Below, piece after piece: positions 17,902 through 44,847 of a stretch of 64,000 nt of DNA (position 1 is its first letter; each line of letters begins with the position of its first letter). The position numbers and the translations under genes are program-made. The notes under the pieces are model-generated. The model did not search any database and was not told the DNA's origin. It worked only from the letters and a program-made list of their open reading frames with translations. This DNA comes from Candidatus Melainabacteria bacterium 17Bon1m (GTDB lineage: Bacteria > Cyanobacteriota > Vampirovibrionia > Obscuribacterales > Obscuribacteraceae): assembly GCA_032128875.1 (NCBI GenBank), contig JAVLKG010000007.1, positions 1 to 64,000 on the forward strand, read 5' to 3'.

Positions 17902-17986
17902 ACGTCGTGACCTAGTCTGACTGGTCATGATGTGAAAGCTGGGGCGTGACGCGAAAGCGTTGCTCCGGCTTTTGGCAATTAGCTTG

Positions 17987-18050
17987 AGAAACGGCAGGCA
18001 CCGGATTTGGTGGCAACACCAGACACCGGACCTGCCGTTTTTCTTCTTTT
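17987..18050 (+). terminator. Terminator-like hairpin between prkA2 and yeaH
   Basis: AAACGGCAGG/CCTGCCGTTT stem with inner GCAA-capped hairpin and a U-rich tail. Confidence 0.55.
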
Positions 18051-18114
18051 CCATCTAATCATGACAAGCTCAGGCAAGTCCTGTGCCAAGTCCAAATGAG
18101 ACTGGAGGTCAAAT

Positions 18115-19548
18115 ATGAACCGCGATGACATCAACAAGAGTCAGGACGGCGCAGAGGAGACTACCCCCGGCACGGGTGTGGTTAATCACGACGCGGCAGC
18201 CGAGAAGGCTCTCAGCGAGTGGGAGACCCAAATGCTGCGAGTACTCAACGGCGACGTTGACGTACCCGAGCGTACCCGTCCGTCGGTGGTCCTCCCGAGG
18301 CCGCCCTACTTCGACCGCACAATCACCGACCGCTGGCGCTTCATGGAACGCGCCAAGCCGAAGATCACCAAAGACGTTCTGAAGCAGATCATCCGCGGCA
18401 AGAGCGGTGTGTTCAACGAGACGTTCGGTGGCAAGTCCACCTCGACGCTCGCGCACATCTTCCTCACGCATGCGATGTTCCGTGACTGCGAAGTCGCGCG
18501 CGGACTGAACGACATCGTCTATGTTCCGGCCAAGGTGCTCGATTCGGGCTTCCTGGCTGGCGGCGATATCGAGGTGCCGATCGGCGTCGACGAACCGAGC
18601 TGGTGGCCCGGTCGCGACAAGGCTGGTGGCGGTGGCGGTGGCAACGAAGCCGGCGAAGATGACGCCGACATCGTCTACATGCCGATCACCTATGAGGAGT
18701 TCCTGGAACTTCTTTCCCTCCTGTTCGATCTGCCGTTCCTGAAGCAGACCGACATGGACAAGATGCTGGTGCAGACCATCAAGATGCGTGGTCTGAAGCG
18801 CACCGGTCCGTCTGTCCGCATGGACAAGAAGGCGACCGCGATCGCGCGTCTCGAGCGCTTCCGCGCCACCCGCAACTCGCGTCCCGACGAGTTCCCCGAC
18901 CTCGACGCCGAGGCCAACCCGACCGTGGAGCAGTTCCCCTTCCACAAGGTGGACCTGCGCTACAAGCGCATCGAAGAGCGTTGGGATCCGGACTCCAAGG
19001 CGGTCGTTTTCTTCGAGCTGGACACCTCCGGCTCGATGAGTGGTGAACCGCTGGCGATGGCCAAGTTCTACTTTCTGCTCAACCTCATCTGGCTGCGCAC
19101 CAAGTACAACGAAGTCAAAGTCGTGTACATCGCTCACAACCACCGCGCCGAGCGCATCCGCAACGAAGCGGACTTCTTCAAGACCGACGTCAACGGCGGC
19201 ACCGGCTTCGCCTGTGCTCACGAGTTGGTCTGGGAGATCATGAACATCGAATTCCCGGGCGACGGCTGGAACAAGTACTGCTTGCACGCGACCGACGGTT
19301 TCGGCGAGCACGAAAGCCAGATCACCCCGTGGATCGAGAAGCTGGTTCGAGGCGGCTTCAACTATTTCGGCTATCTCGAAGTTGACCTCGGTTGGGGCGG
19401 CTTCGGTGGCTGGGAGACGTCAGGCATGAAGGCCGTGAAGCAGACCGCTCCGGACGTCCGTGAGCACTGCGGCTGGTCCCGTGTCGCATCCCTCGATGAA
19501 ATCCCCGCGGCCATGAAGCAAATCATGACCAAGGATAAGACCGCCTAA
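18115..19548 (+). CDS. yeaH: YeaH/YhbH (DUF444) vWA-domain protein
   Basis: Gly-rich GGGGGGNEAGE segment, FDLPFLK, DLRYKR, MIDAS DTSGSM, GGT and TDG; follows prkA. Confidence 0.85.
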   Translation: MNRDDINKSQDGAEETTPGTGVVNHDAAAEKALSEWETQMLRVLNGDVDVPERTRPSVVLPRPPYFDRTITDRWRFMERAKPKITKDVLKQIIRGKSGVFNETFGGKSTSTLAHIFLTHAMFRDCEVARGLNDIVYVPAKVLDSGFLAGGDIEVPIGVDEPSWWPGRDKAGGGGGGNEAGEDDADIVYMPITYEEFLELLSLLFDLPFLKQTDMDKMLVQTIKMRGLKRTGPSVRMDKKATAIARLERFRATRNSRPDEFPDLDAEANPTVEQFPFHKVDLRYKRIEERWDPDSKAVVFFELDTSGSMSGEPLAMAKFYFLLNLIWLRTKYNEVKVVYIAHNHRAERIRNEADFFKTDVNGGTGFACAHELVWEIMNIEFPGDGWNKYCLHATDGFGEHESQITPWIEKLVRGGFNYFGYLEVDLGWGGFGGWETSGMKAVKQTAPDVREHCGWSRVASLDEIPAAMKQIMTKDKTA

Positions 19549-19564
19549 CTAAGGAGGATTTGAT

Positions 19565-21535
19565 ATGAAAAACGAATCAAACTCCACCCACACCTGGGCG
19601 GAGATTCTGTCTAATGATCCGAGGCAGGCGCAGCTCGTCCGCAACCTGAACATCATGGTTCCGCGGGTGGAAGCAGCCGGCAAGCGCTTCGGCGCCAAGC
19701 CGTGCCGCGCCCTCTTCACCATCAAGTCCGATCAGCAGGTGCTGGATGACCTCGTCTATCCGCTGGGCGTGCCGGTTTCTCGGCCCGCCTGGTGGTACGG
19801 CAAGGCCGTTCAGCAGTCGCGCAGCAAGGGTCAGGGCGGTCACGTTTTCGAATTCGCGACCGTCTCCAACCCCGCGCACGTGGTGCTCGGCGAAACCAAC
19901 GACCTGATGATGCACATCCTCGTGATCATCCACGCGTGGATGGGTCACGTGCACATGTTCACGAACAACATCTGGCACGACGAGACCGAGCGCGAAACCG
20001 CGCTGCAGCGTTTCGCCCAGGCCGAGTCGTTCGTGCAGCGTCTGGTCAACGACGAGAAGACGTTCGGGTGGGAGTGGTACGAGTTCTTCTCGGATGCCGC
20101 TCACGCTCTGGAAAACCACTCCGGCGAGCTGCCCTCCAACAAGGAGCGCGAGTCGGATGTGGAAGCGCGTGCCGCTCTGCGTCAGCGTCTCGATGACCTG
20201 AAGCACCAGCACACCCTGGCGAAGACGGACCCGGATCGGGCAACCATCGAAGCGGACATCCGCGACATCGCCAAGACGCTGTCCTGCCACCCGCTCAGCC
20301 CGACAACCGACCTGCTCGGCTTCCTGGCGTCGGAAGACAATCCGCACGCCCTCCTTCCGGAAGTGAAGGAGATTCTCGATATCACGAGATACGAGAACCG
20401 CTACTCGACTCAGGTGATCGGCCGTACGAAGACCATCCACGAGGGTGTCTCGCACTGGTTCGACGCTGAGCTGCCCCTGCAGCCCGAGCTGGACCTCATC
20501 CGGCTGGGAGCCGATCGCATCTTCGACGCCGCCAAGTACGACACCATGCACGACGCGTGGCCGATCTACTGGTACTCCGACCCGTACGCTCTCGGTCAGG
20601 AGCTGATCTATTACGTGGACTCCAAGCACAGCCGCAAGACTGGCACGGAGATCATCAAGGTTCGGCGCCTCAAGCTCCTCACGGAGGAGGACGTGGCGAA
20701 GGGCGGCAAGTACATGGAAGCGGTGCCGGATCACGTCGATGCCGAAGGCAAGACCGTGGTTCGCTACGAAGAGCGCGACATCAACGAGGAAGGCCGCATC
20801 GCCGGCGACCTCGTCGAGCTCGACGAGTTCAAGGAAGTGGAAGTGGACGTCTGGGACCGCACTGAGTTCTGGAGCGTTCTGAACACGTTCGATGACAATC
20901 GGCTGTTCACCACCTACCTGACCGAAGAGTTCTTCGAGAAGCTGCACAAGAAGGCGCTCGGCTGGGTCAAGAAGTCGATCACTTCCATCAACCGTACCCT
21001 GCGCGAAGTGCGTTGGGACCCGAACCTCATCTTCGACGGCGACCGCTTCCCGCAGACGCTGCAGGAGATGTTCCAGGTCATCCAGATCTGGATGAACCAG
21101 CTCCAGATGTCGAGCTGGATCGGTCAGTGGTTCGGTTACGGCGCGGCGCCCTTCCCGGTGTCGCAAGTCGTCCTGTGGCAGATGCTGCAGATCGTCCAAA
21201 CCGTCGCCTCGTACGACGCCGACAAGAATGAGTTCAAGCGTCACATGCTGCTCCGCACGGGGCTTCTGGCGCTGCCGAACATCAAGCTGGTCGACACGGG
21301 TCGTGAGAACAAGACTCCGTACTGGACGCTCCGTCACGAATTCGACTCTGACTTCGGTCCGCTGAAGCAGAGCCACGCGCGGCAGACGCTGCGCTACTTC
21401 TGGCGGTTCTCTGGTCCGGTGCGCATGCTCACGATGGAAATCCTGACGGATGCTTACGGGCGTCCGGTGGGTCCGCCGCGTCCGTACGAGTACTACACGG
21501 AGAACGGCAAGACGGTGAAGGAGCGTTGGCTGTAA
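19565..21535 (+). CDS. spoVR: SpoVR/YcgB-family protein
   Basis: LVIIHAWMGHVHMFTNN, TKTIHEG, DPYALG and LPNIKLVD...LRH correspond to SpoVR motifs; context after prkA-yeaH. Confidence 0.82.
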   Translation: MKNESNSTHTWAEILSNDPRQAQLVRNLNIMVPRVEAAGKRFGAKPCRALFTIKSDQQVLDDLVYPLGVPVSRPAWWYGKAVQQSRSKGQGGHVFEFATVSNPAHVVLGETNDLMMHILVIIHAWMGHVHMFTNNIWHDETERETALQRFAQAESFVQRLVNDEKTFGWEWYEFFSDAAHALENHSGELPSNKERESDVEARAALRQRLDDLKHQHTLAKTDPDRATIEADIRDIAKTLSCHPLSPTTDLLGFLASEDNPHALLPEVKEILDITRYENRYSTQVIGRTKTIHEGVSHWFDAELPLQPELDLIRLGADRIFDAAKYDTMHDAWPIYWYSDPYALGQELIYYVDSKHSRKTGTEIIKVRRLKLLTEEDVAKGGKYMEAVPDHVDAEGKTVVRYEERDINEEGRIAGDLVELDEFKEVEVDVWDRTEFWSVLNTFDDNRLFTTYLTEEFFEKLHKKALGWVKKSITSINRTLREVRWDPNLIFDGDRFPQTLQEMFQVIQIWMNQLQMSSWIGQWFGYGAAPFPVSQVVLWQMLQIVQTVASYDADKNEFKRHMLLRTGLLALPNIKLVDTGRENKTPYWTLRHEFDSDFGPLKQSHARQTLRYFWRFSGPVRMLTMEILTDAYGRPVGPPRPYEYYTENGKTVKERWL

Positions 21536-21724
21536 CAAGCCGGCGCTTCTCACTTATTGCCTGAAACGTGTGTCTAAGTCCGAGCTCGAGCTTCCCTATA
21601 TGAGGATGCGGTGCAAGCTCCTTGTTAGTCCGCTCACGCGGCCTAGCTCGGAGTGCGCGCGCGCATTCCTCTATAGGGCGAGCCGGGCGATGTCACTCTA
21701 ATCAGTCTCTAAAGGAGTACTCAC

Positions 21725-23416: not shown

Positions 23417-23447
23417 CGTGCTGAGCTTCTAGCTTCTAACGAAGCGG

Positions 23448-23518
23448 CAAGGGGGCAGAGCGGAGGCAGTGAGAAAGCAATTTCTCGCTGCCCGAGCCTC
23501 TGCCTCTTTGTTTTTTTT
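23448..23518 (+). terminator. Intrinsic terminator of the prkA operon
   Basis: GGCAGTGAGAAA-GCAA-TTTCTCGCTGCC within a longer stem, followed by T8. Confidence 0.8.
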
Positions 23519-24101
23519 ACCATTCTACTTCCTCATATAATAAGCACAAGTTTGGCTGAAACAGCGGGAAAAAGCGAACACAGTCAGGCGTATCGATTGG
23601 GAAAGCTGAAAGAACATCATCCGCAAGGACAGCCACCAGTAAAATACACATCAAATAGAATCCTGACTATAAGCCTATAAAGCAGAGTTCGCCGACTTCG
23701 GTCTATTGCTTTTGCTGACGAAATGAACCCCTTCAGCAGATCCTTTTATACACCTCAACCGAGGAAGATTTGCTTAGAGAGTGCTCTTGCGATGATAGTA
23801 ACCGCGGCAACTTTCTCTGCAGTTCCAGATGTACATTCGATAAATTGAAAAACGACTTTGCCATTGCGCCCCTCAGAGACTCGTTTTTCATAGACGAGTG
23901 AAAGAAGCGTTTGTTTAATCGAATTGAGTGGAATTACACTATACCCTATCGTAGTCTTGACGCCTAATAATAAGGATAAGGAAAGAGCGGGGGGCTCAGC
24001 ATGAAGGTTTTACCCCTCATGCCTTGCCCCCCGTCTGCCAGGTCTATGCGACTAGTACCCAAACCGCACCAGTCGCATTATCGATTAGTGCTTGAAGTGA
24101 C

Positions 24102-24385: not shown

Positions 24386-25282
24386 TTAAAGCTGCACGCA
24401 AAGGCTGGCGCCGTCGCGGTCGGTGTGGTAGGCCCACGCGAACACTTCCAGTCGCTGTTCGGACGGAAAGCGATTGACTCGCGAGTTCGGGGACTTCTTC
24501 GCCACGCGCACTTGGTTCTGCGCATAGCAAATCGCACCGCCGGCGACTTCCACTTCGGTGTTTTCGACGAACCAGCCCTGCGTGGTGTCGCAGAGGGTCG
24601 CCTTGCAATTGCCACGAGCGCGAAGACGAGAGCGACCGTACGCGCGCAGGATGGCTTTGCCGGCACCGAAGATGGTGGCGTTGTCGTGGCTGTCGAAAAC
24701 GGCGTTGCCGGTGACAGTCCACTGGGAATTGCCACGAACAGTACCGCGCGCGTTGTCGCGAGCGATACCGATGACGTGGTCGTAGCTGTTGACCTTGGCA
24801 CGGCCACCGGCGTCGACATGCACGTTGTCGTGGCAGCTGAGTTGAGCATCGTCGGTGGCGATGACGCGAACACTGCCGCGCGCGACGCCCTTGGTCTTGC
24901 CGACCAAGATGAGGATGCCTTCACCGGTCATGGTCACTTGCGTGCTGTTGAGAGCGACGACAATGCCGCTCTGCACGACGTGCCTGCCGGAAGTGAGAAC
25001 GCGAAGCTGAGCCAGATCCTGGGGTTCGAGATATTCGGCGAGAAGCTCGCGAATCTCGGTTTCCGGATTGGCGGACACTGCCTTCGAAGAGACGGTGCCC
25101 AGGGCATCTCGAAGGGACGCTTCGACGACCTGGCACGGATCCTCGATGAGAATCTTGATGTCGGACGCACGCGTGGGCTCGGTCACTGCGACGAGCGGAG
25201 CGGTGTCACCCGAACGATACGAGGGAATTTCGTTCCTGCTCATACGGAAGAGCAAGCTGATACGAGACGCACTCTGATGCAT
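24386..25282 (-). CDS. Beta-helix-like repeat protein (~8-residue repeats)
   Basis: GGAG RBS; repeats such as SCHDNVHV/DAGGRAKV/NSYDHVIG/IARDNARG/DSHDNATI. Confidence 0.65.
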   Translation of the reverse strand: MHQSASRISLLFRMSRNEIPSYRSGDTAPLVAVTEPTRASDIKILIEDPCQVVEASLRDALGTVSSKAVSANPETEIRELLAEYLEPQDLAQLRVLTSGRHVVQSGIVVALNSTQVTMTGEGILILVGKTKGVARGSVRVIATDDAQLSCHDNVHVDAGGRAKVNSYDHVIGIARDNARGTVRGNSQWTVTGNAVFDSHDNATIFGAGKAILRAYGRSRLRARGNCKATLCDTTQGWFVENTEVEVAGGAICYAQNQVRVAKKSPNSRVNRFPSEQRLEVFAWAYHTDRDGASLCVQL

Positions 25283-26631
25283 AGATTACGTTCTCCATTT
25301 ACTTCTCGAGCGTCATTGCTCGAAGAAAAGGTTAATTGCGTGAAGCCCCGTTTCTTCTCGTTGTTTCACCATTTTGTCCATAACTCATTGCGCAGGGAAC
25401 ATCCAGAAACCGAGGAGGTTTCAGAACAGGGGCGGGAGTCCGTGTGGATGTGGAATACGCGAGAGTTTTTGAGGTCCTTGAACAGAATGTGGAAATAAGA
25501 GATGCGCTGAAACCCTAGTTGCGGACGCAAGAAGTGATCAAGAGGGTGCATTACATAGGGTTACACAATCATGACAACATGCCAAAGGCATCACAGGTTC
25601 AAGAAAAACCCAAGAAGTCATGTGCCCCTTTATTCTTCAGACAGCGCGTAATCACTGCGCTAGCTCTCATAAAGATTTTGTGAAACCGATATTTTCCGAA
25701 GAGCCTCTAAGGATGAGGCATACATGTTGTCAAGAAAGCGCAACTCGCACCAACTTGTTCGATAACACCCCTTGGCATGATACCGTGCGCGCCACCACAG
25801 ATTAGAGACGGCTCACAAGAAGGTCTCTCAGATGCGAAAAACACGACTCTGCTGCGTTTCCCAAAACCGCGAAACAGGCAAAATCAAGCTACCCAGTGTT
25901 CTCGCGGGCAGTTCAAATCAAGAAAGCAAAATCTGACACCAAATACGGTGCAACACCGGAAATAGTTGAACCCGGAACAAGGGCAAGTTCTGCCACCACC
26001 ACTGGTGCTGTTCAATAATGTCGCGCGAACGATGCTGTTAATGACGACAGTTATCAAGAAGCCCATCTCGTGCAAACTTTCCGGCAAACACAAGCACGCG
26101 CGATCCATCCACTTGGAAACACATTTGCCGGTTATTGGCGAGCCGCGCTAATTATCTAGATCGAAAGGCTATTTCTTGGCAGCCTTGTAAGTTCATACAC
26201 TTGACATCAAGAAGTCCAAAGAACGCATCTACTAAGAAGCCCAAGTGTCGGCGGTTTTGGGGACAAAGATCTGAGATCAAGAGCCTAGTATAGCTTTAGT
26301 GTTTAAATCACTCGCGCAAGTTACAGATGTCTCTTTATGCCTTACTCATTTGTTTTGAATAGCCTCTTTCCATATGTTTTAAGGGTTCCGAATATTCACC
26401 TTTGCTTAAGGCAACCAACCCACCAAGCCACGCGCTCCTTTGTCCCGAATTAGCAGCTTGAGACTTCACTTCCTGTGGAGTTGGCCGGAACTTTCGCCCA
26501 TTGGGGCGACTTTCTTTCCCTGACGGATAACCGTAAAGCAGCCTAGACCGAAGCAGGAGCGCTTTCTGGTCGTGCTGAACCTTTTCCGTTCGAAATCTAC
26601 GCGAAACCCTCGAACAGTAAGGAGGACGCCT

Positions 26632-27627
26632 ATGTCTACTGTGTTTTTCGCACAGCCGATGTGGTTCGCGCTCGTCTTGCTCGTGATTCCCATTCTGTGG
26701 TTTGCCAATCGCCGTCGAAAGGCGATCGGTCACTCGCAGGTGGATATCCACAAGAACTTGCGCGGTATCCCCATCGTTGGATGGCTTCAGAGCGCGTCTC
26801 TGGCCCTCCTCGTGCTCGTTATGGCGGCTCTAGTGGCTGGTCCTCTTCTGCCTGAGCAGAAGTCGATCGAAGTCATTCAGACCCGCGATTTCGTTATCAC
26901 CACGGACATCTCCGGGTCGATGGACGAAACAATCAAGGATCCGGACCAGCAGAATTTCGCTACCGGACAGAACGCGCCCACCGACGGCACCCAGCCGCCG
27001 GCGCTCAAGAAGATTGATGTCGCGGCGCGCGCCATCAAGGTATTCGTTGGTCAACGTCAGGGCGACCGTGTCGCTCTGCTCGTGTTCGACACCGAAACGT
27101 TCTACTACTGGCCTCTCAGCCGCGACTTGCGTGTCGTGATGAGCAAAGCCGAGCGTGTCAACAAGTACACGCGCGGCGGCACGGACTTCGACAGCGACAA
27201 CGGCGCCGTTCTCGGCGCGGTCAAGCATTTCCGCGAGGCATCCACGGCCAAGACCAAGGTCATGATCATCGTCACTGACGGTGAAGCCTCTATCTCTGCT
27301 GAGCGCAAAGAGCTGCTCACGCGCACGCTTACCGAGATGGGCATCAAAGTGTATGTCCTCGGTGTGGGCGACTCGTGGGTGAACAACGCGCCCATGACGC
27401 AGGACCTTCGGCAGCTTGTCGAAAGTCTCGGCGGTGTAGTGGTGACTGCGGGCAACCAGGCGCAAATGGATGCCGCATTCGCTACCATCAACAACCTCGA
27501 AAAGTCGCAAGTCGAGCTCGAGAAGTCGGTTAGCTACAAGCCTTTCGCCATGCCGTTTCTAATCGCGGCACTGGTTTTGGCTCTAGCTTACCTCGGCTTG
27601 TCGGCGCTCGTTCGTGACGACGCCTAA
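26632..27627 (+). CDS. Membrane-anchored vWA protein (BatA/MxaC-like), module 1
   Basis: AGGAGG RBS; BatA-type N-terminus FAQPMWFALVLL; MIDAS DISGS, GGT, TDG; C-terminal TM. Confidence 0.85.
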   Translation: MSTVFFAQPMWFALVLLVIPILWFANRRRKAIGHSQVDIHKNLRGIPIVGWLQSASLALLVLVMAALVAGPLLPEQKSIEVIQTRDFVITTDISGSMDETIKDPDQQNFATGQNAPTDGTQPPALKKIDVAARAIKVFVGQRQGDRVALLVFDTETFYYWPLSRDLRVVMSKAERVNKYTRGGTDFDSDNGAVLGAVKHFREASTAKTKVMIIVTDGEASISAERKELLTRTLTEMGIKVYVLGVGDSWVNNAPMTQDLRQLVESLGGVVVTAGNQAQMDAAFATINNLEKSQVELEKSVSYKPFAMPFLIAALVLALAYLGLSALVRDDA

Positions 27628-27638
27628 GGAGTCTAGAT

Positions 27639-28226
27639 ATGCGCAAGAAAAATTCTCGCCGCACGTACTGGATGATCGCGGCGCTTGTCGCGGGCATCCT
27701 GTTTTCGGGCTTCGGGCTTCACCTGGCGACGTACCAGAGCGCGCAGACCGGGTACTACAACCTCGGCCTCGCCGCGTACCAGCAGGAGAATCTCCAGCTC
27801 GCGAACGCAGCTTTTGACCGCAGCATTCAGGCCTACAAAGCCGAATCGCGTGCGGGCTGGCTGCACCGCTTCATCTACCCTGAGCCCAGCCGCGAAATGG
27901 CTGCGCTCGCATACTTCCACAAGGCGAAGGTGCTTCTGCGCGCCCGCCAGGTGGAGCCTGCAGTGGAGGCCTTCAAAGAGTCTCTGCGTCTGAACGCCGG
28001 CAACGGCTATCAGGGCATCTCGCTCACCGAAGCTCAGCGCCTGGAAGCCCAGGCGGAGGTCGTGAAGTACGACCTGGAGCTGCTCTTCAAGAACCAGCCC
28101 CAGCAGGGCCAGGGTCAGGGCAAGGGCAAGGGCAAGCCGCAGCAGGGCGACGGCAAGGGCAACCAGCAGGTTCCGGGCGACCAGCCAGGCGCACAGCCTG
28201 GTAAGGGCAAGCCGGACGACATCTAA
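27639..28226 (+). CDS. TPR protein (BatC/MxaK-like), module 1
   Basis: N-terminal TM; AVEAFKESLRLN...VKYDLELL; G/Q/K/P-rich tail. Confidence 0.75.
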   Translation: MRKKNSRRTYWMIAALVAGILFSGFGLHLATYQSAQTGYYNLGLAAYQQENLQLANAAFDRSIQAYKAESRAGWLHRFIYPEPSREMAALAYFHKAKVLLRARQVEPAVEAFKESLRLNAGNGYQGISLTEAQRLEAQAEVVKYDLELLFKNQPQQGQGQGKGKGKPQQGDGKGNQQVPGDQPGAQPGKGKPDDI

Positions 28227-28245
28227 TCTAACAGGAGGCTGAACG

Positions 28246-29340: not shown

Positions 29341-29473
29341 TTCTCTCGCAATTCACCCGGCAGTGGCACCGCGTGCGGTGTCACTGATAACAGGCAGAAT
29401 CCCGCGCGGGAACTGCCCTGGACCTTCCCTATACACGCCGTACTGCAATGTGCGGCAAAACGGAGAAACAACC

Positions 29474-31716: not shown

Positions 31717-31728
31717 AGGAGCAGAACC

Positions 31729-32919: not shown

Positions 32920-33213
32920 GAATCGTAATCGAGGCTACTCGGCACCGCACAGTCACAGCAATGTGGCTGTGCGGCATGCCGTGTGAGCCACGTCTTCAAA
33001 GTACTGCAAAACACTCGCTTAGAACCTCCCTGCTGGCCGCCACCACATGCGGTGACTGGTCAGTAAGGCAGTTCTCCTTCGGCACTAGCTGATTGTGCGG
33101 GAAGTTCGTTGCGTGCTGAGACGAATGCAAATGAATGAAGACTGCCCGAGCGCATGGAATGCGCTCCATTGCAGGATCTCCTGCGGATGCATGGGCAGCA
33201 AGGAGTCCTACCC

Positions 33214-34728
<1,515 letters not shown>

Positions 34729-34876
34729 TTCCTCAAACGCAAAAGAAGCAGTGCTGTTGGTCTTGCACCACCGGCACTGTTTCGCGTTTATGCGCTTGCC
34801 GAAACAAGCGTACATCTGAATCGGCATTACGCGCCGTTCGCAAAGGCGCGTGCCTAACTCTAACTGGAGAACACAA

Positions 34877-36523
34877 ATGCGCAAGATTCTCACGAGTCTG
34901 CTTGTGCTGTGCTTCACGCTTGCCGGTCCCCTGGGCATCGCTCAGGCTGAGACCACGAGCAAGCCGGCCAAGCAGGTGAATCCGATCATCATCATCATGG
35001 GCGCCGATTCCGGGACGCAGGTTCCGGACCCGAATGCCCCTGTCCAGGCGGTTCCTGATGAGAAGGCCAAGCCGGTCAACCCGCTCGATAACGGCGGGCC
35101 GATGCCGGCGGACCTCCAGGAATTCTTCCAGCATCTGTTCGGTCAGATGCAGGCGCAGGTGGCACCACCCACGCCCAAGCAGCTGGAAGACGTCTATAAG
35201 AGCGTCTGGTATCGCATCAACGCCACGTACTACGACCACGACGCGCTGAAGAATTTCGGTCAGTGGAAGAACAAGTACGACGGCAAGCTGACCACGCCGG
35301 CCGAGCTCGAGACTGCCATCAAAGAGATGGCCGGATCGCTGAACGACCGCTGGACCAGCTACACCACTTCCGAAGAGATCAAGCAGTCGATGAGCCAGCA
35401 CAACGCTGGTCTCGAGCCGCTCGGCATGATGTTCAAGCAGCATCAGGACGGCTCCTACGTCATCGATTTCATGGTCTACGGAACGCCCGCGCAGAAGTCG
35501 GATCTTCGCAAAGGCGACACCGTCAAGTCCATCAACGGCAAGGACCTGACCGGACTGACTGCCACCGAGGTCGAGAAATTGACTCTGGTGAAAGCCGGTG
35601 ATGAAGCGACCATCGTCGCTGTCATCGACGGCAAGGACGTCACCGTCACGCTCAAGTCGGCTCCCGCCGACGCGCCGGATTTCGCGGCCAAGCTCCTGCC
35701 GGGCAACATCGCCTACGTGCGACTGCCGAGCTTCGAGAGCGAAGAGATGGTGGCTGGGCTGGTCGGCAATCTGCAGGAGCTCTACAAGGCTTCCGGCGGC
35801 AAGCTCAACGGCCTCGTCCTCGACCTGCGCGGAAACCCTGGCGGCGTCTTCGATTACGCGCGTCAGGTTGCTTCGCTCTTCCTCTCGCAGGGCGTCATCG
35901 TGACCAGCACCACCCGTCAGGGACTGGAGCTTCACGAAGAGCGCTTCAGCGTCGTGAAGGCATGGCCGCATGACTTCGGTGATGCGCCGCCTGAGGCCAT
36001 CGCATTTCTCCACACCCTGGAGACTGTGCCGATGACCGTCCTCACGGACGGCAGCTCTGCCAGCTGCTCTGAAATCTTGACCGGTGCCCTCAAGGACAAC
36101 GGTCGCGCAGTCATCGTCGGTCAGACCACTTACGGCAAGGGCGTCGGATACCAGTCCGGTCGTCACCGTGCCGGTGGCTGGCTGTCCGTGACGTCTTTGA
36201 GCTATCTGACTCCGTCGGGCTACAACCTGGCCAACAAGGGTATCGACCCCGATATCCCGGTTGCTCAGCCGCGTGGCGCTGCTCTGGACGTTCAGCTTGA
36301 CGCTGCCGTGAAGGCGGTGAAGTCGCAGCAGATGACGCCTGCTAAGCCCCAGGGCCAGCAGAGCTCGCCGCTCGCCTTCATCGATCCGAATGGCGTTGTC
36401 GTCAAGGCGGCAATGATTGCTGTCTTCTTCCTGGCCATCGTGCTCTTTGGTGTGCACCTGCACATGCGGGCGCAGGCTGAGGAGAAGAAGAAGAATCCGC
36501 CGCAGAAGAAGGACGGCAAGTAA
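34877..36523 (+). CDS. S41 C-terminal processing protease with PDZ domain and C-terminal TM anchor
   Basis: DLRGNPGG, SASCSE, TYGKG; signal peptide; hydrophobic C-terminal helix plus charged tail. Confidence 0.92.
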   Translation: MRKILTSLLVLCFTLAGPLGIAQAETTSKPAKQVNPIIIIMGADSGTQVPDPNAPVQAVPDEKAKPVNPLDNGGPMPADLQEFFQHLFGQMQAQVAPPTPKQLEDVYKSVWYRINATYYDHDALKNFGQWKNKYDGKLTTPAELETAIKEMAGSLNDRWTSYTTSEEIKQSMSQHNAGLEPLGMMFKQHQDGSYVIDFMVYGTPAQKSDLRKGDTVKSINGKDLTGLTATEVEKLTLVKAGDEATIVAVIDGKDVTVTLKSAPADAPDFAAKLLPGNIAYVRLPSFESEEMVAGLVGNLQELYKASGGKLNGLVLDLRGNPGGVFDYARQVASLFLSQGVIVTSTTRQGLELHEERFSVVKAWPHDFGDAPPEAIAFLHTLETVPMTVLTDGSSASCSEILTGALKDNGRAVIVGQTTYGKGVGYQSGRHRAGGWLSVTSLSYLTPSGYNLANKGIDPDIPVAQPRGAALDVQLDAAVKAVKSQQMTPAKPQGQQSSPLAFIDPNGVVVKAAMIAVFFLAIVLFGVHLHMRAQAEEKKKNPPQKKDGK

Positions 36524-36639
36524 AACTCAAAGACAGGAGCGCTCTCTTTCGAGGAGCGCTCCTGCTCTTCGAGTATCTCTGAGAACCGCTGCGTATGCGG
36601 TTCGAGCTCGGCCAACCGAACAAAACGGAGGGCATAGAA

Positions 36640-36681
36640 ATGGTCAACACGAAAGGAGATCCCATGAAGCTAACTAGGTAG
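36640..36681 (+). promoter_or_regulatory. Candidate leader peptide MVNTKGDPMKLTR
   Basis: GGAGG 8 nt before ATG 36640; AGGAG 5 nt before in-frame ATG 36664; stop overlaps the 5' arm of a long stem. Confidence 0.45.
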
Positions 36682-36836
36682 AGGCGCCGGCGCGCGCTAA
36701 TGTTTTTTGCACAGGACATGCGGCATCTAGCAAATGCTTCGGTCTGTGAAACACGCTCGTCTGCGTGTTTCTAATTCTGTGTGCGAACAGTCACCCTTCA
36801 ACAACTGCGCCGGTGCCTCCTACCAAAGGAGGCATC

Positions 36837-37139
36837 ATGGGCAAATCCCACCGTCACAGCTACAAGAGCTACGATCGCGACGACCACGAAAACCGTGGCA
36901 CCATCTTCGTCAACCTCTCTGAGGTCTACATCACCGACTCCACCGTGCAGAAGCTCCTCGATCGCGATGGCGGTCAGATCGAGCAGATGCGCCGTGACTT
37001 CGAGGATGGGCGTGAGATGTTCCGCTGCGTTCTGCGTCCCCGCGTTGGCGGCGGCTACAACATCGAAGACGGCCGTCACCGCATCATCGCCGCGAAGCTC
37101 GCTGGCGTGTGCTTCATCGAAGCGCTCGTCATCGGCTAA
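36837..37139 (+). CDS. Stand-alone ParB/Sulfiredoxin N-terminal-like domain protein
   Basis: YNIEDGRHRIIAAKLAG motif; AGGAGG RBS; 100 aa, no HTH. Confidence 0.75.
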   Translation: MGKSHRHSYKSYDRDDHENRGTIFVNLSEVYITDSTVQKLLDRDGGQIEQMRRDFEDGREMFRCVLRPRVGGGYNIEDGRHRIIAAKLAGVCFIEALVIG

Positions 37140-37149
37140 CCAGAAAGAG

Positions 37150-37208
37150 AAAGCCGCAGGGACAACTCAGCATCACCGCTGAATCCCTGCGGCTTTTTCA
37201 CCTTTTTG
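37150..37208 (+). terminator. Intrinsic terminator of module 1 operon
   Basis: AAAGCCGCAGGGA/TCCCTGCGGCTTT stem plus T runs. Confidence 0.75.
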
Positions 37209-37293
37209 CTGCGGTTTTTGCCGAGCAAAAAACAGTCTTCATAAATCTCATCGCGTTTCCAAAAACAGAAACGCTACAAACAGGAGTTTCCCT

Positions 37294-37611
37294 ATGAATC
37301 GCGGAACACTGCTGACAGTCATCGGCACCATCCTCAGCGTTGGTGCGCTTGCCGCCTGGGCGTTCGTCGCTCCGGCTGCCGGTTCGGGCTGGATTCTCTT
37401 CGTCGCCTTCATCGGCGCGATGAACCTGCTCAACTCCATCAACAACAGCACGCTCGCCACCATCTCCGGTGTCGTGATCGCAGCTGCATCGGGCTTCATC
37501 TGGTTTACGCACCAGACGCTGCCGGACGTCGGTTGGGTCGGCTTTCTGGCCATCCTTACGGCGCTCGGTGCGCTCAATGCGCTGAACTCGGGCGTCAGTC
37601 GCAACACGTAA
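37294..37611 (+). CDS. Small 4-TM protein with internal duplication
   Basis: AGGAG RBS; GWILFVAFIGAMNLLNS versus GWVGFLAILTALGALNALNS. Confidence 0.65.
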   Translation: MNRGTLLTVIGTILSVGALAAWAFVAPAAGSGWILFVAFIGAMNLLNSINNSTLATISGVVIAAASGFIWFTHQTLPDVGWVGFLAILTALGALNALNSGVSRNT

Positions 37612-38235: not shown

Positions 38236-39651
38236 TCACACGCTCGTGACGGAAAGCCGGTTTCTCAGGCGGTCATAGCCGACGAACAACCGCTTGCCCA
38301 GAACATCGAGCCTGAGCAGACGAGCCAACTTCAGCATCAGCACCAGGTAGCCGACGACCAGGAACCAGACGAACTTCACCAGTCCGCCCAGCACCGTCTG
38401 CACACGCGCGGGCGTATATTGCCGGTAGCCGGAAGCCACCGCCGCACCGCCCACACCGAGCCAGCCCCAGATGTAGCGGCCGCCCACGACAGCGAGGTCG
38501 CGCGCAGCCACGAACTTGGATGCGACCAATCGGAAGAAGCCAACCAGAAGGTCAGCAACAACTTCCGACAACAGCCGGTCTTCGCTCTTCGGCTGAGGCA
38601 CCGTCACCGACAACTTCTTCACCACCGGCAGTCGCCTTGCGGCAATAGCGATGACGACCGACGCCAGCATGACGAGCATGCACACGCCGTAGAAGTTGAG
38701 GCTCTGGATGAAACCGTTGTTGCGCTGCAAGGCCGCTACGAAAAGCTGCCCGGCAGTCAGCGACATTGCCGCCACGATGGTGGTGACAATCGGCGTCCAG
38801 AGACGTTTCCACCAGCTACTCACCGACGACTGGAAGAAGAACATCCAGATGGCGCAGACGACAGCCAGCGAACAGCTGAAGCGCACCGGATAGCTGCCGA
38901 TGCCGGAAGCCATGGTGACAAACGCCATTGCGCAGAACGCCAGAGCGTAGAACGCACCATCACGCCAACGCAGCCGCCCGACATCGCCGAGCAGCATCAG
39001 TGCCGCCACGGCAAGACCGAAGGCCATGCCGCCGATGTGAGCGGAGAACGCCACACCTGCAGCTTCCTCGGCACCACCGAGCTGCGCCCAGAGCGACATC
39101 CACTGCATGACCATGTACTCACCCAGGAAGAACACGCTCAGGGTGGTGATCAGGTTGAAGGTCGGCGTCATCCCGTCCACGCGAGCGCGCGGATAGTACA
39201 GGACATAGGCGCCGAGCACTCCACCGATGGCACCGGAAGCTCCCAGAATGTGCCCGGTTCCCGACGTGTCGGTAGCCAGGAAGGTGAGCGTCGCCGCAAT
39301 ACCCGAGAGCAGGTAGAAGGCGGCGAACCGGCCGTGACCCATCCTCGCTTCGAGCGCGGGCGCGAAGCAGAAGAAGAACCACATGTTGCCGAAGATGTGC
39401 GAGAAGCTGCCGTGCAAGAACATCGCCAGGAAAACGGCGATGATGCTCCTGCCGATCAGCCACGGATCGCCTGTGGCGATGCCGGTCGTGAGCACGTCAC
39501 GAACGGGCAGCCAGCTGGTGATGGTGGTGTTCATCACGCCGCTGGTGTCGAGAGTGATCTGCCCGATGTACATCAGCACATTGAGCGCGAAGATCGTCAC
39601 CGACACCCAGGCGAACTTGGTATAGCGCAGATTGTCCTTGAGAGGAATCAT
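38236..39651 (-). CDS. Rhomboid intramembrane serine protease with long C-terminal extension
   Basis: MIPLKD start, FLHGSFSHIFGNM, GASG, AHIGG. Confidence 0.92.
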   Translation of the reverse strand: MIPLKDNLRYTKFAWVSVTIFALNVLMYIGQITLDTSGVMNTTITSWLPVRDVLTTGIATGDPWLIGRSIIAVFLAMFLHGSFSHIFGNMWFFFCFAPALEARMGHGRFAAFYLLSGIAATLTFLATDTSGTGHILGASGAIGGVLGAYVLYYPRARVDGMTPTFNLITTLSVFFLGEYMVMQWMSLWAQLGGAEEAAGVAFSAHIGGMAFGLAVAALMLLGDVGRLRWRDGAFYALAFCAMAFVTMASGIGSYPVRFSCSLAVVCAIWMFFFQSSVSSWWKRLWTPIVTTIVAAMSLTAGQLFVAALQRNNGFIQSLNFYGVCMLVMLASVVIAIAARRLPVVKKLSVTVPQPKSEDRLLSEVVADLLVGFFRLVASKFVAARDLAVVGGRYIWGWLGVGGAAVASGYRQYTPARVQTVLGGLVKFVWFLVVGYLVLMLKLARLLRLDVLGKRLFVGYDRLRNRLSVTSV

Positions 39652-40142
39652 GGCCGCACCTCCTTGCCGTCGGAATCGGCAACGATGCCGAACTCAATTT
39701 CTGCAGCCGAGGGGTGACGATTTTGCTCCGCTTCCAGCAGATTGCGCTGCTGGCGACGGAAGTGATACAGCACGAAGAACGCCAGGAAGATGAGCAGTGC
39801 CGCCGCGCGGAAAGGCGTCCACAACTGCGGCAGGACGGACACGAAAGTGCCGATCCCGGGCAGCTTCTTCAGCCACTCCAACGTCTCCTTGAGGTATTTC
39901 TGCACGGTGGCAGTTTCCTCGTCGATGTCGGCAGTCCGCTCGGCCTTGGGCCGCTTCTTCGCCTGCTGAGCCAGATAGACGTCGGGCTGACTGTCCGACG
40001 CCACCAGATGCGGTGACAGCTCGGTCGCCGAGAGCGCCGGTTGTGCCATCGCGGGAGATGCGATGCCGACCAGCGCAACAGCCGACGCGACCGCCAGTGA
40101 GAGCAAGACCGCTCTCACGCGCAAGACGATTCTGTTGATCAT
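39648..40142 (-). CDS. Signal-peptide + C-terminal TM hypothetical protein
   Basis: AMA|Q signal, TM AAALLIFLAFFVLY followed by HFRR; ATGA overlap with rhomboid. Confidence 0.7.
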   Translation of the reverse strand: MINRIVLRVRAVLLSLAVASAVALVGIASPAMAQPALSATELSPHLVASDSQPDVYLAQQAKKRPKAERTADIDEETATVQKYLKETLEWLKKLPGIGTFVSVLPQLWTPFRAAALLIFLAFFVLYHFRRQQRNLLEAEQNRHPSAAEIEFGIVADSDGKEVRP

Positions 40143-40240
40143 TGGAAGCTCCTAACTATGTTCTGAACGGCTACACGCCGCCCGTTTCTGCAACCGGCAC
40201 AATTGCCGATCGCCAGTTGGGACGGCAGGGCTGCCGTCCG

Positions 40241-41428
40241 TTACATCGAATAGGGCCGCTTGATCAGCTCGTCCACCTCCTTGAGGAGCTGGGCTTGCTC
40301 GGCGGCCGACAGAGGACGATCGGTGATCAGCACGCGGTCCAACTTGCGGAACACGCTCTTCACCAGGTTCGCCTGCGGATCATCGGGCAGAGCCTCGATT
40401 TCCGTAAGCGTCATGCCCTCCAGCCCCGGGTAGACCGGCGCCAGGAACGTACGCACGACACTGCTCATCCGCTTGTAGTGCGTCTTGCCGAAGCCGATTT
40501 CCTTGCCGGACTTGACGGCGGAGTGCATGGCCAGCCAGGCTGCCGCTTCACGCGAGATGTTCTTGCGCGCGCGGACCCGGTTGACGTAGCGCACCGTAGC
40601 CATGACAGGCCAGCTGGCGAACAGCAGGAAGCAGAGGATGCCGAGCAGCGGAACCGGCCATGCCGAACGCGGCTTGACCATCTCGGTGTTGCCCATCACC
40701 ATCGGACGCTTCATGTTCTCGTAGCCGCCGTCGATGTTGTTCAGAAGAACGAACTCGGGCGTCACGAAAACCTGATGGCGCGGCGTACCGTCCGGGTTGT
40801 TGTCAACCGAGTACGGCAACTGCATGGTGAAGCGCAGGTGCGGCTTGATGGTGAACTGACGCACCAGGATAGTGACATCATGGGTGGTGACACCGTCCTT
40901 CGTGGTCGTCGTGATGACCGGCTTGCCGGCCAGCTCGAACGACTGCTTGAACGATTCCTCCAGAGCGATCTTGCCCTGACGGAGCGGGTCGAGATTGACC
41001 GTTGAGCCGGACGCCACGATGAACTTGATGTTCAGCGGAATGGCGTCGCCGATCTGCCAGCCGAAGACGCGGGCGGAGATGACCACCTTGATCTTGCCGC
41101 CGCCGCAGTCCGCCTTCATTTCCGGCAACACCACCAGCGGTGGCACGACCGGAACTTCGGGAACGGCTTCCTGATTGGGCTCGGCTTGCGCCTGCCCGTC
41201 GGCAGCCGGCGTCTTGGGAGGCGCCTTGGCCGGATCGGCAGCACCAGCCTGCGCGGGCTTCTTCTCTTCCTGCACGACGCAGAAAGGCGGCGTCACGGTC
41301 GGTGTCGTGTTGACCACGCCGGTGTCCTCACCCGCCTGCGCGTACACCGCAGTCGTGATGGGCATTGCCAGAGTTGCGGTCAGCATCGCGGCCGCCGCGA
41401 AAGTGAGTCTACGATTCAGACGATTCAT
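40241..41428 (-). CDS. Signal-peptide + single-TM protein (BatD/MxaA-like), module 2
   Basis: GGAG RBS before ATG 41428; RVFGWQIGD, TPEFV, TM, AAW...KTHYK shared with module-1 paralogue. Confidence 0.6.
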   Translation of the reverse strand: MNRLNRRLTFAAAAMLTATLAMPITTAVYAQAGEDTGVVNTTPTVTPPFCVVQEEKKPAQAGAADPAKAPPKTPAADGQAQAEPNQEAVPEVPVVPPLVVLPEMKADCGGGKIKVVISARVFGWQIGDAIPLNIKFIVASGSTVNLDPLRQGKIALEESFKQSFELAGKPVITTTTKDGVTTHDVTILVRQFTIKPHLRFTMQLPYSVDNNPDGTPRHQVFVTPEFVLLNNIDGGYENMKRPMVMGNTEMVKPRSAWPVPLLGILCFLLFASWPVMATVRYVNRVRARKNISREAAAWLAMHSAVKSGKEIGFGKTHYKRMSSVVRTFLAPVYPGLEGMTLTEIEALPDDPQANLVKSVFRKLDRVLITDRPLSAAEQAQLLKEVDELIKRPYSM

Positions 41429-42356
41429 GTTCATTCTCCATTGGCCGGTGACCGGAGTAGATAGGCAGAATGGTCTCATTGAGACCGTCGACATCCTGGT
41501 CGGTCCAGAACTCCTGCATGGAGCATCCGAAGTCGACCAGAGTTTTGCGCAGCTCCTGACGCTGAGCGTCGAAGCTTTCACGCCATTGACGGCGGGTCTT
41601 GTCACTGAGGTGAATGCCGGACACACCACCCGTGCCGAGATCCTCGAGATCACGGAAGCCGGAGCCTTCGGGCAATTCGCGCTCACGGCGATCGCCGACG
41701 ACGAGGGCTATCACGTCGTGCATCTCCGCTGCAGCCTCGAGCGCATCCTTGTCGGCGGCGCTGTAGTTCTGCCAGTCGGAGATGATGAAGACGAGGCAGC
41801 GCCGGTCCGTGGGCAGCCGCTCGAGCGACTGAACCAGACCCGACTGCTCCTCGGCATCGAAGCCGTCTTCTTCGGAATCCTCGTCGAGGTATCCGAAAAG
41901 TCCTTGCTGAAGCAGACGTCCCGCCGGACGATGCGAGCGGAACTGATGAATTTTGTTGCCCTGCCAAATCGAGTAGCCGAGCAAGTCGTTGGTGCAGGAC
42001 GTGTTCTGCAACACGGAGCCCATCAGCCACGCGCACAACTCCTTCTTGGTGTGGCGAACGACACCGAAGTCGACCGACTTCGAGTTTTCCACCAGCACGT
42101 AGACGGTGAGGTCGCGGGGCTGTTCGAAGACCAGCGTGTACTTCGTACGCCAGCCGGTTTTCGCAGTGGGGCGGGGCGCCAGCCTGTCGCCGGGTTCCCA
42201 CTCCTTGATGCCTGCCAGGTCAAAGCCGGAATCGCCCAAAGTCTCGCTGTCACGCTCGCTGCCCGAGTAATCGGGAGCGTTCGTACGCCACGGGACTTCG
42301 ATGCCGACCGACATGACCCCGGACAAGATGTCCTGGATTAAGTCTTCGACAGTCAT
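41409..42356 (-). CDS. DUF58 protein (MxaS-like), module 2
   Basis: KEWEPGD, SKSVDFG, IISDW, DRRERELP (identical in module 1); start trimmed to ATG after AGGTG. Confidence 0.82.
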   Translation of the reverse strand: MTVEDLIQDILSGVMSVGIEVPWRTNAPDYSGSERDSETLGDSGFDLAGIKEWEPGDRLAPRPTAKTGWRTKYTLVFEQPRDLTVYVLVENSKSVDFGVVRHTKKELCAWLMGSVLQNTSCTNDLLGYSIWQGNKIHQFRSHRPAGRLLQQGLFGYLDEDSEEDGFDAEEQSGLVQSLERLPTDRRCLVFIISDWQNYSAADKDALEAAAEMHDVIALVVGDRRERELPEGSGFRDLEDLGTGGVSGIHLSDKTRRQWRESFDAQRQELRKTLVDFGCSMQEFWTDQDVDGLNETILPIYSGHRPMENEHESSES

Positions 42357-42464
42357 GATTCTATCCACCTTTGTTTGAGTGAAATTGCCTGTGCCCGCAT
42401 GTCTTGAGCACCGGATTGACCGGGCTCGGTGAAACACGCGGGCAGCACGCTTCATAGACGACCA

Positions 42465-43523
42465 TTACGGCTGGGTGTGGACCAGGATCGAAGTGATCAG
42501 GTCGTCGACCTTCACCTTCTTCTTGCCGAGCGACGCGGTCTGACCCATCTTGGTGTGGGCGCGCGCGACCTCGGGGAAGACGGCCTTGACGTGCTCGGGA
42601 CGCACGGTGTCCTGGTCCATCGCGTGGGCCAGAGCGGCAGCAGCCATCTTCAGGTCCATGGCGCAGCGCGGCGAGCCGCCGACTTCGACCATGTCCTTGT
42701 ACGACTTGCCGTTCGGGGTCTCCCACTTGTCCATGAAACCAACGTAGGGGTTGGTGCCATAGGACAGGCGAGCGATGTACTCGTTCACCGACGAGCCGAC
42801 GCCGACCGCCAGCTCATGCACTTCGCCGCGCATCTTGAGCAGCTCGGTGACGCTGGTGACCGGACGAACCATCTGCTTTTCGCCGCGCGGCATGCGCAGC
42901 ATCTGAGCGTTCTGGACGATCTCGGTCAGACCTTCCAGCGTGGGGTAGCCCCACTGGATGTTGAACATCAGCCGGTCGTAGGCTGCGTTCGGCAGTTCCA
43001 CCGTGCCCTGGCCGGGAGCGGGGAAGTTGCAGGTGATGAGGCCGACGAACAGGTCCGGCATCTCGATGGTGACGTCTTCGACGGTCTTCTCCCGCTCTTC
43101 CAGCATCTGCAGGAAGGCAGCCCAGAGACGGGGCGTGTAGCGAGTGCCCTCGTCGACGAGCAGGAAGTTGGCGCCGTCCGGACCACCGGGGACCTGACCG
43201 TGACGCCACACGCGCGAACCATCGGCGGTGTCAATCGGATAACCGATGACCGTCGACGGCAGCGCATCCGGCGTGCCCTGGCAGCGGGCTTCGCGGCAGC
43301 CCTCGATGATGAGCGGCATGACCTTGGCGATCTTGGTCTTGCCCAGACCGGAGTTGGCCATCAGGATGGCGTGACCGGCGGCGGTGAAGAGCAGGTTGAT
43401 GAGCACCAGCTCGCGCTTGTACCCGACGATGACCTTGCCCTCTTCTTCGAGCAAAGCCCTGTGGACCCGGTTCTTGATCATGTCGATGTCGAAGACCAGG
43501 CGGTGATTGCTATCGAACTTCAT
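42465..43523 (-). CDS. moxR: MoxR-family AAA+ ATPase, module 2
   Basis: SGLGKT, QGTPDALPS, LVDEGTR, GTVELPNAAYDR, SPR. Confidence 0.88.
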   Translation of the reverse strand: MKFDSNHRLVFDIDMIKNRVHRALLEEEGKVIVGYKRELVLINLLFTAAGHAILMANSGLGKTKIAKVMPLIIEGCREARCQGTPDALPSTVIGYPIDTADGSRVWRHGQVPGGPDGANFLLVDEGTRYTPRLWAAFLQMLEEREKTVEDVTIEMPDLFVGLITCNFPAPGQGTVELPNAAYDRLMFNIQWGYPTLEGLTEIVQNAQMLRMPRGEKQMVRPVTSVTELLKMRGEVHELAVGVGSSVNEYIARLSYGTNPYVGFMDKWETPNGKSYKDMVEVGGSPRCAMDLKMAAAALAHAMDQDTVRPEHVKAVFPEVARAHTKMGQTASLGKKKVKVDDLITSILVHTQP

Positions 43524-43642
43524 GGCGATATCCTTTGTTCACTTGTGTCATGAGGAAAGCCGACTCGCCCAGGTTGGCAAAGCTGGATGCTTCCAGCGAT
43601 GTCAGCCTTTGCGAGTGCGGCGGTTTCAGTTGGAAGTCACGT

Positions 43643-44839: not shown

Positions 44840-44847
44840 CGCCTCCT

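Follow-up and report, generated by a model that had tools for sequence, protein, structure and literature searches.

The inverted repeats at the 3′ ends of chloroplast mRNAs and the hairpins of the puf operon and of the repetitive extragenic palindromic (REP) elements of malEFG act as exonuclease barriers and processing signals, not as efficient terminators, and provide segmental mRNA stability. A different arrangement has been described as hairpin-cluster intrinsic termination units; these units comprise single or clustered hairpins located within 80 nt past the stop codon, with hairpins less than 15 nt apart and with a poly-U tail mostly absent (Gupta and Pal 2021, PMC8355165). Here, we compare these systems with hairpin clusters found in the intergenic spacers of a GC-rich gene block of Candidatus Melainabacteria bacterium 17Bon1m, a relative of cyanobacteria that does not photosynthesise. 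The window analysed is the 64,000-nt stretch at the start of contig C7 (JAVLKG010000007.1) of a 7.55 Mb draft genome (35 contigs; 93% complete, 4.5% contamination, GC ~49%); the block is located at 13.2–46.6 kb, where GC content is 60%, as compared to 49–52% in the flanks, and its genes have a GC content at third codon positions (GC3) of 0.75–0.95. The hairpin clusters are real, single-copy, and spacer-specific, are biased towards the transcribed strand, are conserved with compensatory changes, and are tied to the GC3-rich gene class genome-wide; they look like lineage-specific punctuation of mRNAs.

Folding energies were expressed as z-scores relative to dinucleotide shuffles, and spacers of 80–300 nt were analysed. 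Nine spacers of the block, folded as the transcribed strand (30 shuffles), presented z-scores of −6.73, −7.06, −6.54, −4.59, −3.72, −1.71, −9.31, −4.06, and −4.03. The initial annotation of this DNA had described most long spacers of the block as hairpin arrays, a description borne out for eight of the nine (z from −3.7 to −9.3), and all hairpins that it had named also fold as described in our predictions; most of them start 8–50 nt past a stop codon. The most stable is the ~105-nt hairpin at 21584–21688, in the spacer after the SpoVR-like gene (−66.0 kcal/mol). Two of the named hairpins represent the apices of longer helices: 30558–30583 (11 bp, GTAA loop, −18.0 kcal/mol) caps a 30-bp hairpin at 30534–30605 (−41.8 kcal/mol) in the MoxR-DUF58 spacer, which contains further hairpins at 30643–30666, 30683–30712, and 30716–30742, while 32945–32974 (13 bp, GCAA loop, −23.6 kcal/mol) caps a 24-bp hairpin at 32933–32989, in a spacer that also contains a multibranch fold reaching about 33110. 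The hairpin at 29361–29386 has 11 bp (−18.0 kcal/mol). The value of −9.31 belongs to spacer 37140–37293. The spacer that was not significant as a whole, 36524–36764 (z −1.71), carries a hairpin of −31 kcal/mol at its 5′ end; the adjoining segment 36765–36824 may be coding or may be the leader of a small open reading frame (ORF).

The initial annotation had placed this structure in the block, where it is indeed present; it is not confined to the block, however, but is common to all GC3-rich genes of the genome and the family. The genome contains 58 stretches of at least 57% GC (~0.5 Mb in total), interleaved with 49% GC sequence on certain contigs (C2, C3, C5, C7, C8, C12, C13, C15, C18, C19, and C23), and gene GC3 is bimodal, with one mode near 0.52 and another at 0.70–0.90 that holds 268 of the 2933 scored genes longer than 600 nt. 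With GC-rich context defined as at least 57% GC and low-GC context as below 52% GC, all 91 spacers in GC-rich context presented a median z of −4.44 on the sense and −3.07 on the antisense strand (79% below −3), as compared to −0.92 for 91 low-GC-context spacers taken at random from 1313 (18% below −3) and −0.82 for 74 coding windows of 170 nt in GC-rich genes (2.7% below −3). Among spacers matched for a GC content of 0.50–0.58, the median z was −4.62 in GC-rich context (n = 55) vs. −2.03 in low-GC context (n = 20). Strong hairpins, which we define as having at least 7 bp and −9 kcal/mol or better, occur at a density of 10.8 per kb in GC-rich and 4.4 per kb in low-GC contexts, and at least two of them were found in 47 of 87 tandem spacers in GC-rich contexts vs. 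32 of 228 in low-GC contexts.

Spacer z follows the GC3 of the upstream gene (Spearman −0.57, 195 tandem spacers), stepping from about −1 below a GC3 of 0.6 to about −4.4 above 0.7. The idea that structure is a property of mosaic replicons was rejected: when both flanking genes had GC3 <0.6, mosaic and other contigs were alike (−1.65 vs. −0.96, p 0.28). As the contig no longer matters when GC3 is accounted for, structure is linked to gene class and not to contig. Low-GC-context tandem spacers on mosaic contigs had an intermediate median z of −2.5 (n = 60), and in the relative G007, four low-GC-context spacers beside the block are also structured (z −3.9 to −5.6), a small sample that is at odds with a clean dichotomy. 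Of neighbouring gene pairs, 89% are co-directional in GC-rich contexts and 61% elsewhere, with a median tandem gap of 126 nt in GC-rich contexts vs. 85 nt.

Two properties, strand asymmetry and GNRA loops, point to a signal at the RNA level. The transcribed strand outfolds its complement in 66 of the 87 tandem spacers in GC-rich contexts (Wilcoxon p 1e-9), whereas the difference between sense and antisense folding is not significant in low-GC contexts; within the block, the minus-strand spacer 40143–40240 presented a z of −4.06 on the transcribed strand vs. −0.43 on the complement. This comparison replaces a count of G·U pairs vs. A/C mismatches in predicted stems (470 vs. 37), which was discarded because the folding algorithm itself prefers G·U; the low-GC control was equally skewed (1296 vs. 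63). GNRA loops, regarded as typical in the initial annotation, are enriched without being the rule, with 14 of 65 tetraloops in GC-rich contexts having this pattern vs. 4 of 65 having its reverse complement. At least one strong hairpin is present in 76 of the 87 tandem spacers; the first one starts at a median of 22 nt past the stop codon, 42 of 75 gaps between hairpins are shorter than 15 nt, and the median stem of strong hairpins is 11 bp. A T-rich tail (at least 6 T in the next 10 nt) follows only 4 of the 151 strong hairpins in GC-rich contexts. A simple terminator scan of 17.5–37.4 kb found 15 sites vs. 17.7 expected; a promoter scan was uninformative (4 sites vs. 3.9 expected).

The block is syntenic and GC-rich (0.56–0.64) in nine relatives, five from the same genus and four from the same family, with protein identity down to ~40%; seven more genomes of the genus gave only weak hits, from which absence is not implied as these are incomplete metagenome-assembled genomes (MAGs). 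In the nine relatives, 27 of 30 orthologous spacers had a z of −3.6 or lower, with lengths of 55–705 nt and with many of the sequences being mutually unalignable. Orthologues of spacer 34729–34849, for example, have z-scores of −3.6 to −9.2 and largely unalignable sequences, while those of 29341–29473 have a z of −4.3 in G007 and G008 and weaker values in G017, G018, and G020. Where spacers could be aligned, compensatory changes were found in all four hairpin regions (alignments A1–A4). In A1 (orthologues of 30521–30620, seven sequences), 31 pairs were formed with 95.4% of cells paired, and the covariation score was 0.266 vs. 0.170 in shuffles; in A2 (orthologues of 32920–33004, eight sequences including metagenome loci), 7 of 16 pairs had changed on both sides and the score was 0.384 vs. 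0.176. None of 500 shuffles scored as high in either alignment, and controls with slid partners left 33–52% of cells paired for A1 and 33–63% for A1 and A2 together. In A3 (the spacer after the SpoVR-like gene, five sequences), 8 of 42 pairs had changed on both sides, and three genomes (G007, G008, and G012) have a short GNRA-capped apex in place of that of the 105-nt hairpin. In A4 (the prkA-DUF444 spacer, five sequences), the first hairpin shows covariation; the second has been lost by deletion in G008, and in G012 a different one with a UUCG cap has taken its place. As the alignments are small and the genomes are related and thus non-independent, these covariation counts are compatible with selection on pairing, short of formal proof. 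Taken with hairpin-for-hairpin replacement and sense-strand bias, the compensatory changes agree with the proposal of the initial annotation that structure is under selection, and selection on RNA structure is well supported; any of the functions that it lists (RNase III processing, segmental stabilisation, long-lived mRNA, or RNA-protein binding) may apply.

As compared to the termination units of Gupta and Pal (PMC8355165), the clusters found here are alike in the distance of the first hairpin from the stop codon, in the short gaps between hairpins, and in the rarity of T-rich tails. They differ in being located between co-directional genes, whereas the published units are located between operons in 13 genomes, in filling whole spacers, in being confined to one compositional gene class within a genome, and in being predicted folds only. 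With canonical Rho-independent terminators, the clusters share GC-rich stem-loops downstream of genes, and T-tracts are found in three elements in or beside the block (17986–18043, 23446–23518, and 37147–37199), which are ordinary terminators or attenuators; the great majority of the hairpins, however, have no U-rich tract directly 3′ of the stem, and the scan gave no excess of sites. The stabilisers of chloroplast, puf, and malEFG mRNAs are similar in that they are stem-loops past coding regions, and the lineage studied here is related to cyanobacteria and plastids; the present hairpins, which are predicted structures, differ in forming arrays of several hairpins.

We lean towards an interpretation in which the hairpins, mostly without a U-tract, generate or protect the ends of mRNAs, thereby stabilising segments independently. 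The clusters would act on mRNA, punctuating long one-directional strings of GC3-rich genes in this Obscuribacterales genome and its family. Hairpins starting about 20 nt past each stop codon would form or protect 3′ ends, either through U-tract-independent pausing or termination or by blocking 3′–5′ exonucleases after cleavage; those closer to the following gene would shield the 5′ end of that gene and cover part of its ribosome-binding site. The outcome would be that every gene or gene pair is a separately stabilised mRNA segment. Genes for RNase III and RNase E/G are present, while the RNA-binding domain of Rho was not found in the 93%-complete genome, the same result as in the Synechococcus control.

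A number of points weigh against this interpretation. Hairpin loops are spread evenly over the spacers (58, 65, 66, 70, and 57 loops per successive fifth), so that structure extends beyond the region just past the stop codon. The hairpin at 43560–43620 breaks the strand pattern, as the initial annotation had pointed out, in that the non-transcribed (plus) strand is the more stable one (−39.3 vs. −31.7 kcal/mol on the minus strand). Genes were called uniformly across the genome with a crude caller based on ORFs and amino-acid composition, with starts set at the longest ORF, so spacer ends are approximate; each z-score rests on 25–30 shuffles, and the relatives are related genomes and thus non-independent samples in small alignments. 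Mycobacterial RNA polymerase is reported to need a U-tract, which argues against hairpin-only termination generally (PMC3993855). In a cyanobacterium without Rho, most transcript ends are non-canonical, and in Synechococcus these non-canonical 3′ ends are broadly without strong structure, according to a preprint (10.1101/2025.11.10.687660); structured ends are thus no general cyanobacterial habit.

Other explanations start from composition, repetition, and processing. Spacers of the block type are richer in GC than other spacers of the genome (mean 0.56 vs. 0.47), and structure could thus be a by-product of GC-rich composition; this reading is hardly credible and is contradicted by the fact that block and GC-rich-context spacers are far more structured than dinucleotide shuffles, GC-matched spacers, and coding windows in GC-rich genes, with z uncorrelated with spacer GC within either class. 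Contradicted as well, and just as implausible, is the possibility that the spacers are copies of mobile palindromic repeats of the REP, bacterial interspersed mosaic element (BIME), or miniature inverted-repeat transposable element (MITE) kind, which are likewise GC-rich palindromes in operon spacers. One segment, 23446–23516, does have a 71-nt copy with 91.5% identity (contig C3, 11301–11371), but in BLASTN searches of 13 spacers against the 7.55-Mb genome the other 12 gave only hits of 15–24 nt, no apical motif common to the 151 strong hairpins was found, and orthologous hairpins occupy fixed positions in relatives, with covariation. Whereas REP elements, as in malEFG, are repeated families, the hairpins found here are unique and without a consensus, which supports the view of the initial annotation that they are unrelated and do not form one repeat family. 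Neither of the two conditions under which that annotation would have been refuted, multicopy repeats and structure at the level of controls, holds. The copy on contig C3, which is one of the T8 terminator, lies in a very structured convergent spacer (z −8.83). A further explanation, that the long irregular helices serve mainly as sites where RNase III cleaves polycistronic transcripts into segments, is unlikely in our judgement, although the enzyme gene is present and helices of 21–30 bp occur at 30534–30605, 32933–32989, and 36525–36574. Most strong hairpins are short, with a median stem of 11 bp, and the usual substrate of RNase III, a double-stranded helix of about two turns, is longer. In RNA libraries, molecules terminate within stems or loops of precisely these three helices, but these ends may be artefacts. 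The libraries are three RNA-seq runs from one sample that may be the source of this DNA; they hold 98% of sampled words and were available as contigs only. Their contigs stop at 23460–23484, 23988–24071, 30545–30575, 32951–32993, and 36536–36560, that is, inside two T-tract terminators and three U-less hairpins, all of which are passed by DNA-run contigs, and sequencing-adapter letters make up the listed loose ends at four of these stops (none listed for 36536–36560). One of the three runs bridges 32951–32993 and 36536–36560, and RNA-library contigs also bridge the hairpins at 17902–18114, 21584–21688, 29361–29386, and 34736–34851. The stops are suggestive but ambiguous, and we do not count them as evidence: depths are flat at 24–48, even between two convergent terminators, which suggests that the libraries contain DNA; both orientations of contig end are found at 30574/30575; a single sample supplied all three runs; and the most stable helices could produce the same result by stalling the reverse transcriptase or by template switching.

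Two explanations concern the function and the origin of the hairpins. A role mainly in controlling translation or binding proteins, for example by hiding the next ribosome-binding site or by acting as operators, is quite improbable, as most hairpins are located far from start codons and share no common motif; in its favour, all five aligned genomes have a conserved UUCC after the complementary, purine-rich GGAG that directly precedes the DUF58 start codon, this GGAG is paired in the predicted fold of the present genome, and the prkA-DUF444 spacer hardly varies in its 3′ half. Alternatively, the hairpins could be historical baggage with little present function, in that GC3-rich genes originated in a genome richer in GC, or are remnants of one, where such spacers are usual and in that template-switch mutation at the DNA level renews the palindromes. 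Polarised synonymous changes in the block comprise 27 GC-to-AT vs. 7 AT-to-GC changes, on 393 GC and 79 AT sites, which would imply that the block is slowly losing GC, the counts being small and parsimony being biased. A search of 150 sampled genomes, drawn from 29 other families of the phylum, did not find the gene encoding the 396-aa protein; the background of family-level relatives is richer in GC (0.53–0.57); and hairpins turn over by insertion, deletion, and replacement. All of this fits the baggage explanation, which we nevertheless hold to be improbable: structure is maintained at all orthologous positions, even where protein identity is as low as 40%, DNA palindromes would not be expected to give a sense-over-antisense asymmetry or conserved G·U pairs, and synteny with G007 spans GC-rich and low-GC parts alike, indicating that the mosaic was inherited vertically within the genus. 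In the family-level relatives, spacers near the block have a median z of about −3 (n = 11 each). The GC-rich class may be either an old acquisition or a retained ancestral composition.

The features of the window are listed in Table 1, with gene identities assigned from Pfam domains. No tRNAs were found in the window, and a search against Rfam 15 gave no match at gathering score.

Table 1. Genes, spacers, hairpins, and terminators in the GC-rich block and beside it (positions in the 64,000-nt window; z, folding z-score).
Feature	Position	Strand	Remarks
PrkA genes (two)	13162–15492, 15517–17901	+	Pfam
prkA-DUF444 spacer	17902–18114	+	z −6.73
DUF444 (yeaH-like) gene	18115–19548	+	Pfam
SpoVR-like gene	19565–21535	+	Pfam
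Spacer after SpoVR-like gene	21536–21724	+	z −7.06
Canonical intrinsic terminator closing the prkA gene string	23446–23518	+	GC-rich hairpin, GCAA loop, then T8
Gene in gene-poor stretch	24386–25282	−	
Spacer, second VWA gene to MoxR (if MoxR ATG = 29474)	29341–29473	+	hairpins 29361–29386, 29437–29456
MoxR gene	~29474–30520	+	Pfam; start approximate
MoxR-DUF58 spacer	30521–30762	+	z −7.42 plus, −3.45 minus (200 shuffles)
DUF58 gene	30763–31716	+	Pfam
396-aa gene	31729–32919	+	
Spacer, 396-aa gene to first S41 peptidase	32920–33153	+	z −4.59
S41 peptidase genes (two)	33154–34728, 34850–36523	+	Pfam
Spacer between S41 peptidase genes	34729–34849	+	z −3.72; hairpins 34745–34783, 34791–34812, about 34823–34845
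Hairpins just 3′ of second S41 gene	36525–36574 (21 bp), 36583–36603	+	predicted fold
Terminator-like hairpin with T-rich tail, 3′ of small ORF	37147–37199	+	predicted fold
Second hairpin after the terminator-like hairpin	37203–37231	+	
Rhomboid gene, end of minus-strand string	38236–39651	−	Pfam
Second BatA/VWA, VWA, MoxR, DUF58, paralogue string	46633 down to 39648	−	Pfam
Spacer in minus-strand MoxR/DUF58/VWA string	40143–40240	−	hairpin apex 40190–40213
Hairpin past minus-strand MoxR stop codon	42391–42464	−	predicted fold
Spacer, VWA gene to MoxR	43524–43642	−	hairpin 43560–43620; z −4.03 sense, −3.95 antisense

The two PrkA-family genes are arranged in tandem with 24 nt between them, and both contain the AAA_PrkA and PrkA C-terminal domains. 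The spacer that follows them contains hairpins at 17902–17933, 17934–17973 (GAAA loop), and 17986–18043, the last of which is long and terminator-like with a T-rich tail, and then a conserved leader. The 3′ half of this spacer (17986–18114), i.e., the T-tract hairpin together with the leader as far as the ribosome-binding site, is almost invariant among five aligned genomes that differ at 3–14% of positions overall; it represents a candidate attenuator or regulatory leader in this prkA-yeaH-ycgB-type gene trio. The SpoVR-like gene is followed on the plus strand by two genes of unknown function and then by VWA, TPR, and VWA genes. In the gene-poor stretch at 23.4–26.6 kb, windows below a z of −3.5 start only at 23351, 23426, and 23951 in a sliding-window scan; as these coincide with two T-tract terminators, the stretch is no hairpin array. 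For the MoxR gene, the later start at 29474 is favoured because homologues align only from MoxR residue 12–47 onward. In the MoxR-DUF58 spacer, the first two hairpins flank a stretch of ~19 nt in 30618–30640 that is predicted to be unpaired and is kept in all five aligned genomes, with one genome differing at two positions and with variable surroundings.

Two paralogous strings of VWA/BatA, MoxR, DUF58, and 396-aa-family genes face each other, at 26572–32919 on the plus strand and 39648–46633 on the minus strand; contigs C3 and C13 carry further paralogues of the 396-aa gene, of which two contain an in-frame stop. The hairpin at 42391–42433 may lie inside the DUF58 reading frame of the minus-strand string, if this gene starts at 42455. 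Two small ORFs, 36837–37139 and 37294–37611, are located between the convergent strings; neither matches Pfam, and the latter resembles a small membrane protein. The region at 37.0–38.2 kb is strongly structured in the sliding-window scan (z −4.5 to −6.9).

No single functional theme emerged from Pfam across the GC-rich blocks of the genome. The other blocks include a Ter operon, genes encoding aconitase and malate dehydrogenase, acyl-CoA dehydrogenases, and hydrolases, and the many peptidases found in GC-rich blocks belong to M1, M4, M13, M17, M24, and S41. The Ter block (C5, 115001–132000) contains a full tellurite-resistance-type operon with three TerD genes as well as TerC, StiP/PELOTA, PRTase_2/TRSP, C-C bond lyase, and ATPgrasp_Ter genes, and its spacers have z-scores of −3 to −10. 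The idea that the GC-rich class consists of highly expressed genes was rejected, with ribosomal-protein and RNA-polymerase genes presenting a GC3 of 0.55–0.63 and thus falling outside this class.

A survey of RNA structures in 202 cyanobacteria makes no mention of Melainabacteria (PMC12873609), and among the matches listed, the literature that names the lineage treats neither RNA structure nor GC mosaics. The way in which transcripts terminate and operon mRNAs are divided in the Rho-less cyanobacterial lineage is an open question, as is stated explicitly in the preprint cited above (10.1101/2025.11.10.687660). The genome described here offers ~90 single-copy hairpin-cluster spacers with few U-tracts, beside an internal control class of unstructured spacers. 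Composition-based binning of MAGs may lose these regions, and reported absences of such blocks therefore need care. The tight link between gene GC3 and spacer folding is an unusual dichotomy within one genome and bears on whether compositional islands carry their own expression signals. A bolder proposal, which we regard as doubtful, is that Obscuribacterales run two mRNA regimes, with 268 of the 2933 longer genes (GC3 0.7–0.9, ~58 blocks, 0.5 Mb) arranged in one-directional strings in which every spacer would carry unique, covarying hairpin clusters without a U-tract that act as Rho- and U-tract-independent terminators or processing stops. If this were true, the clusters would represent a type of punctuation not described before, in a lineage without Rho, and would provide a natural test set for transcript ends in relatives of cyanobacteria.

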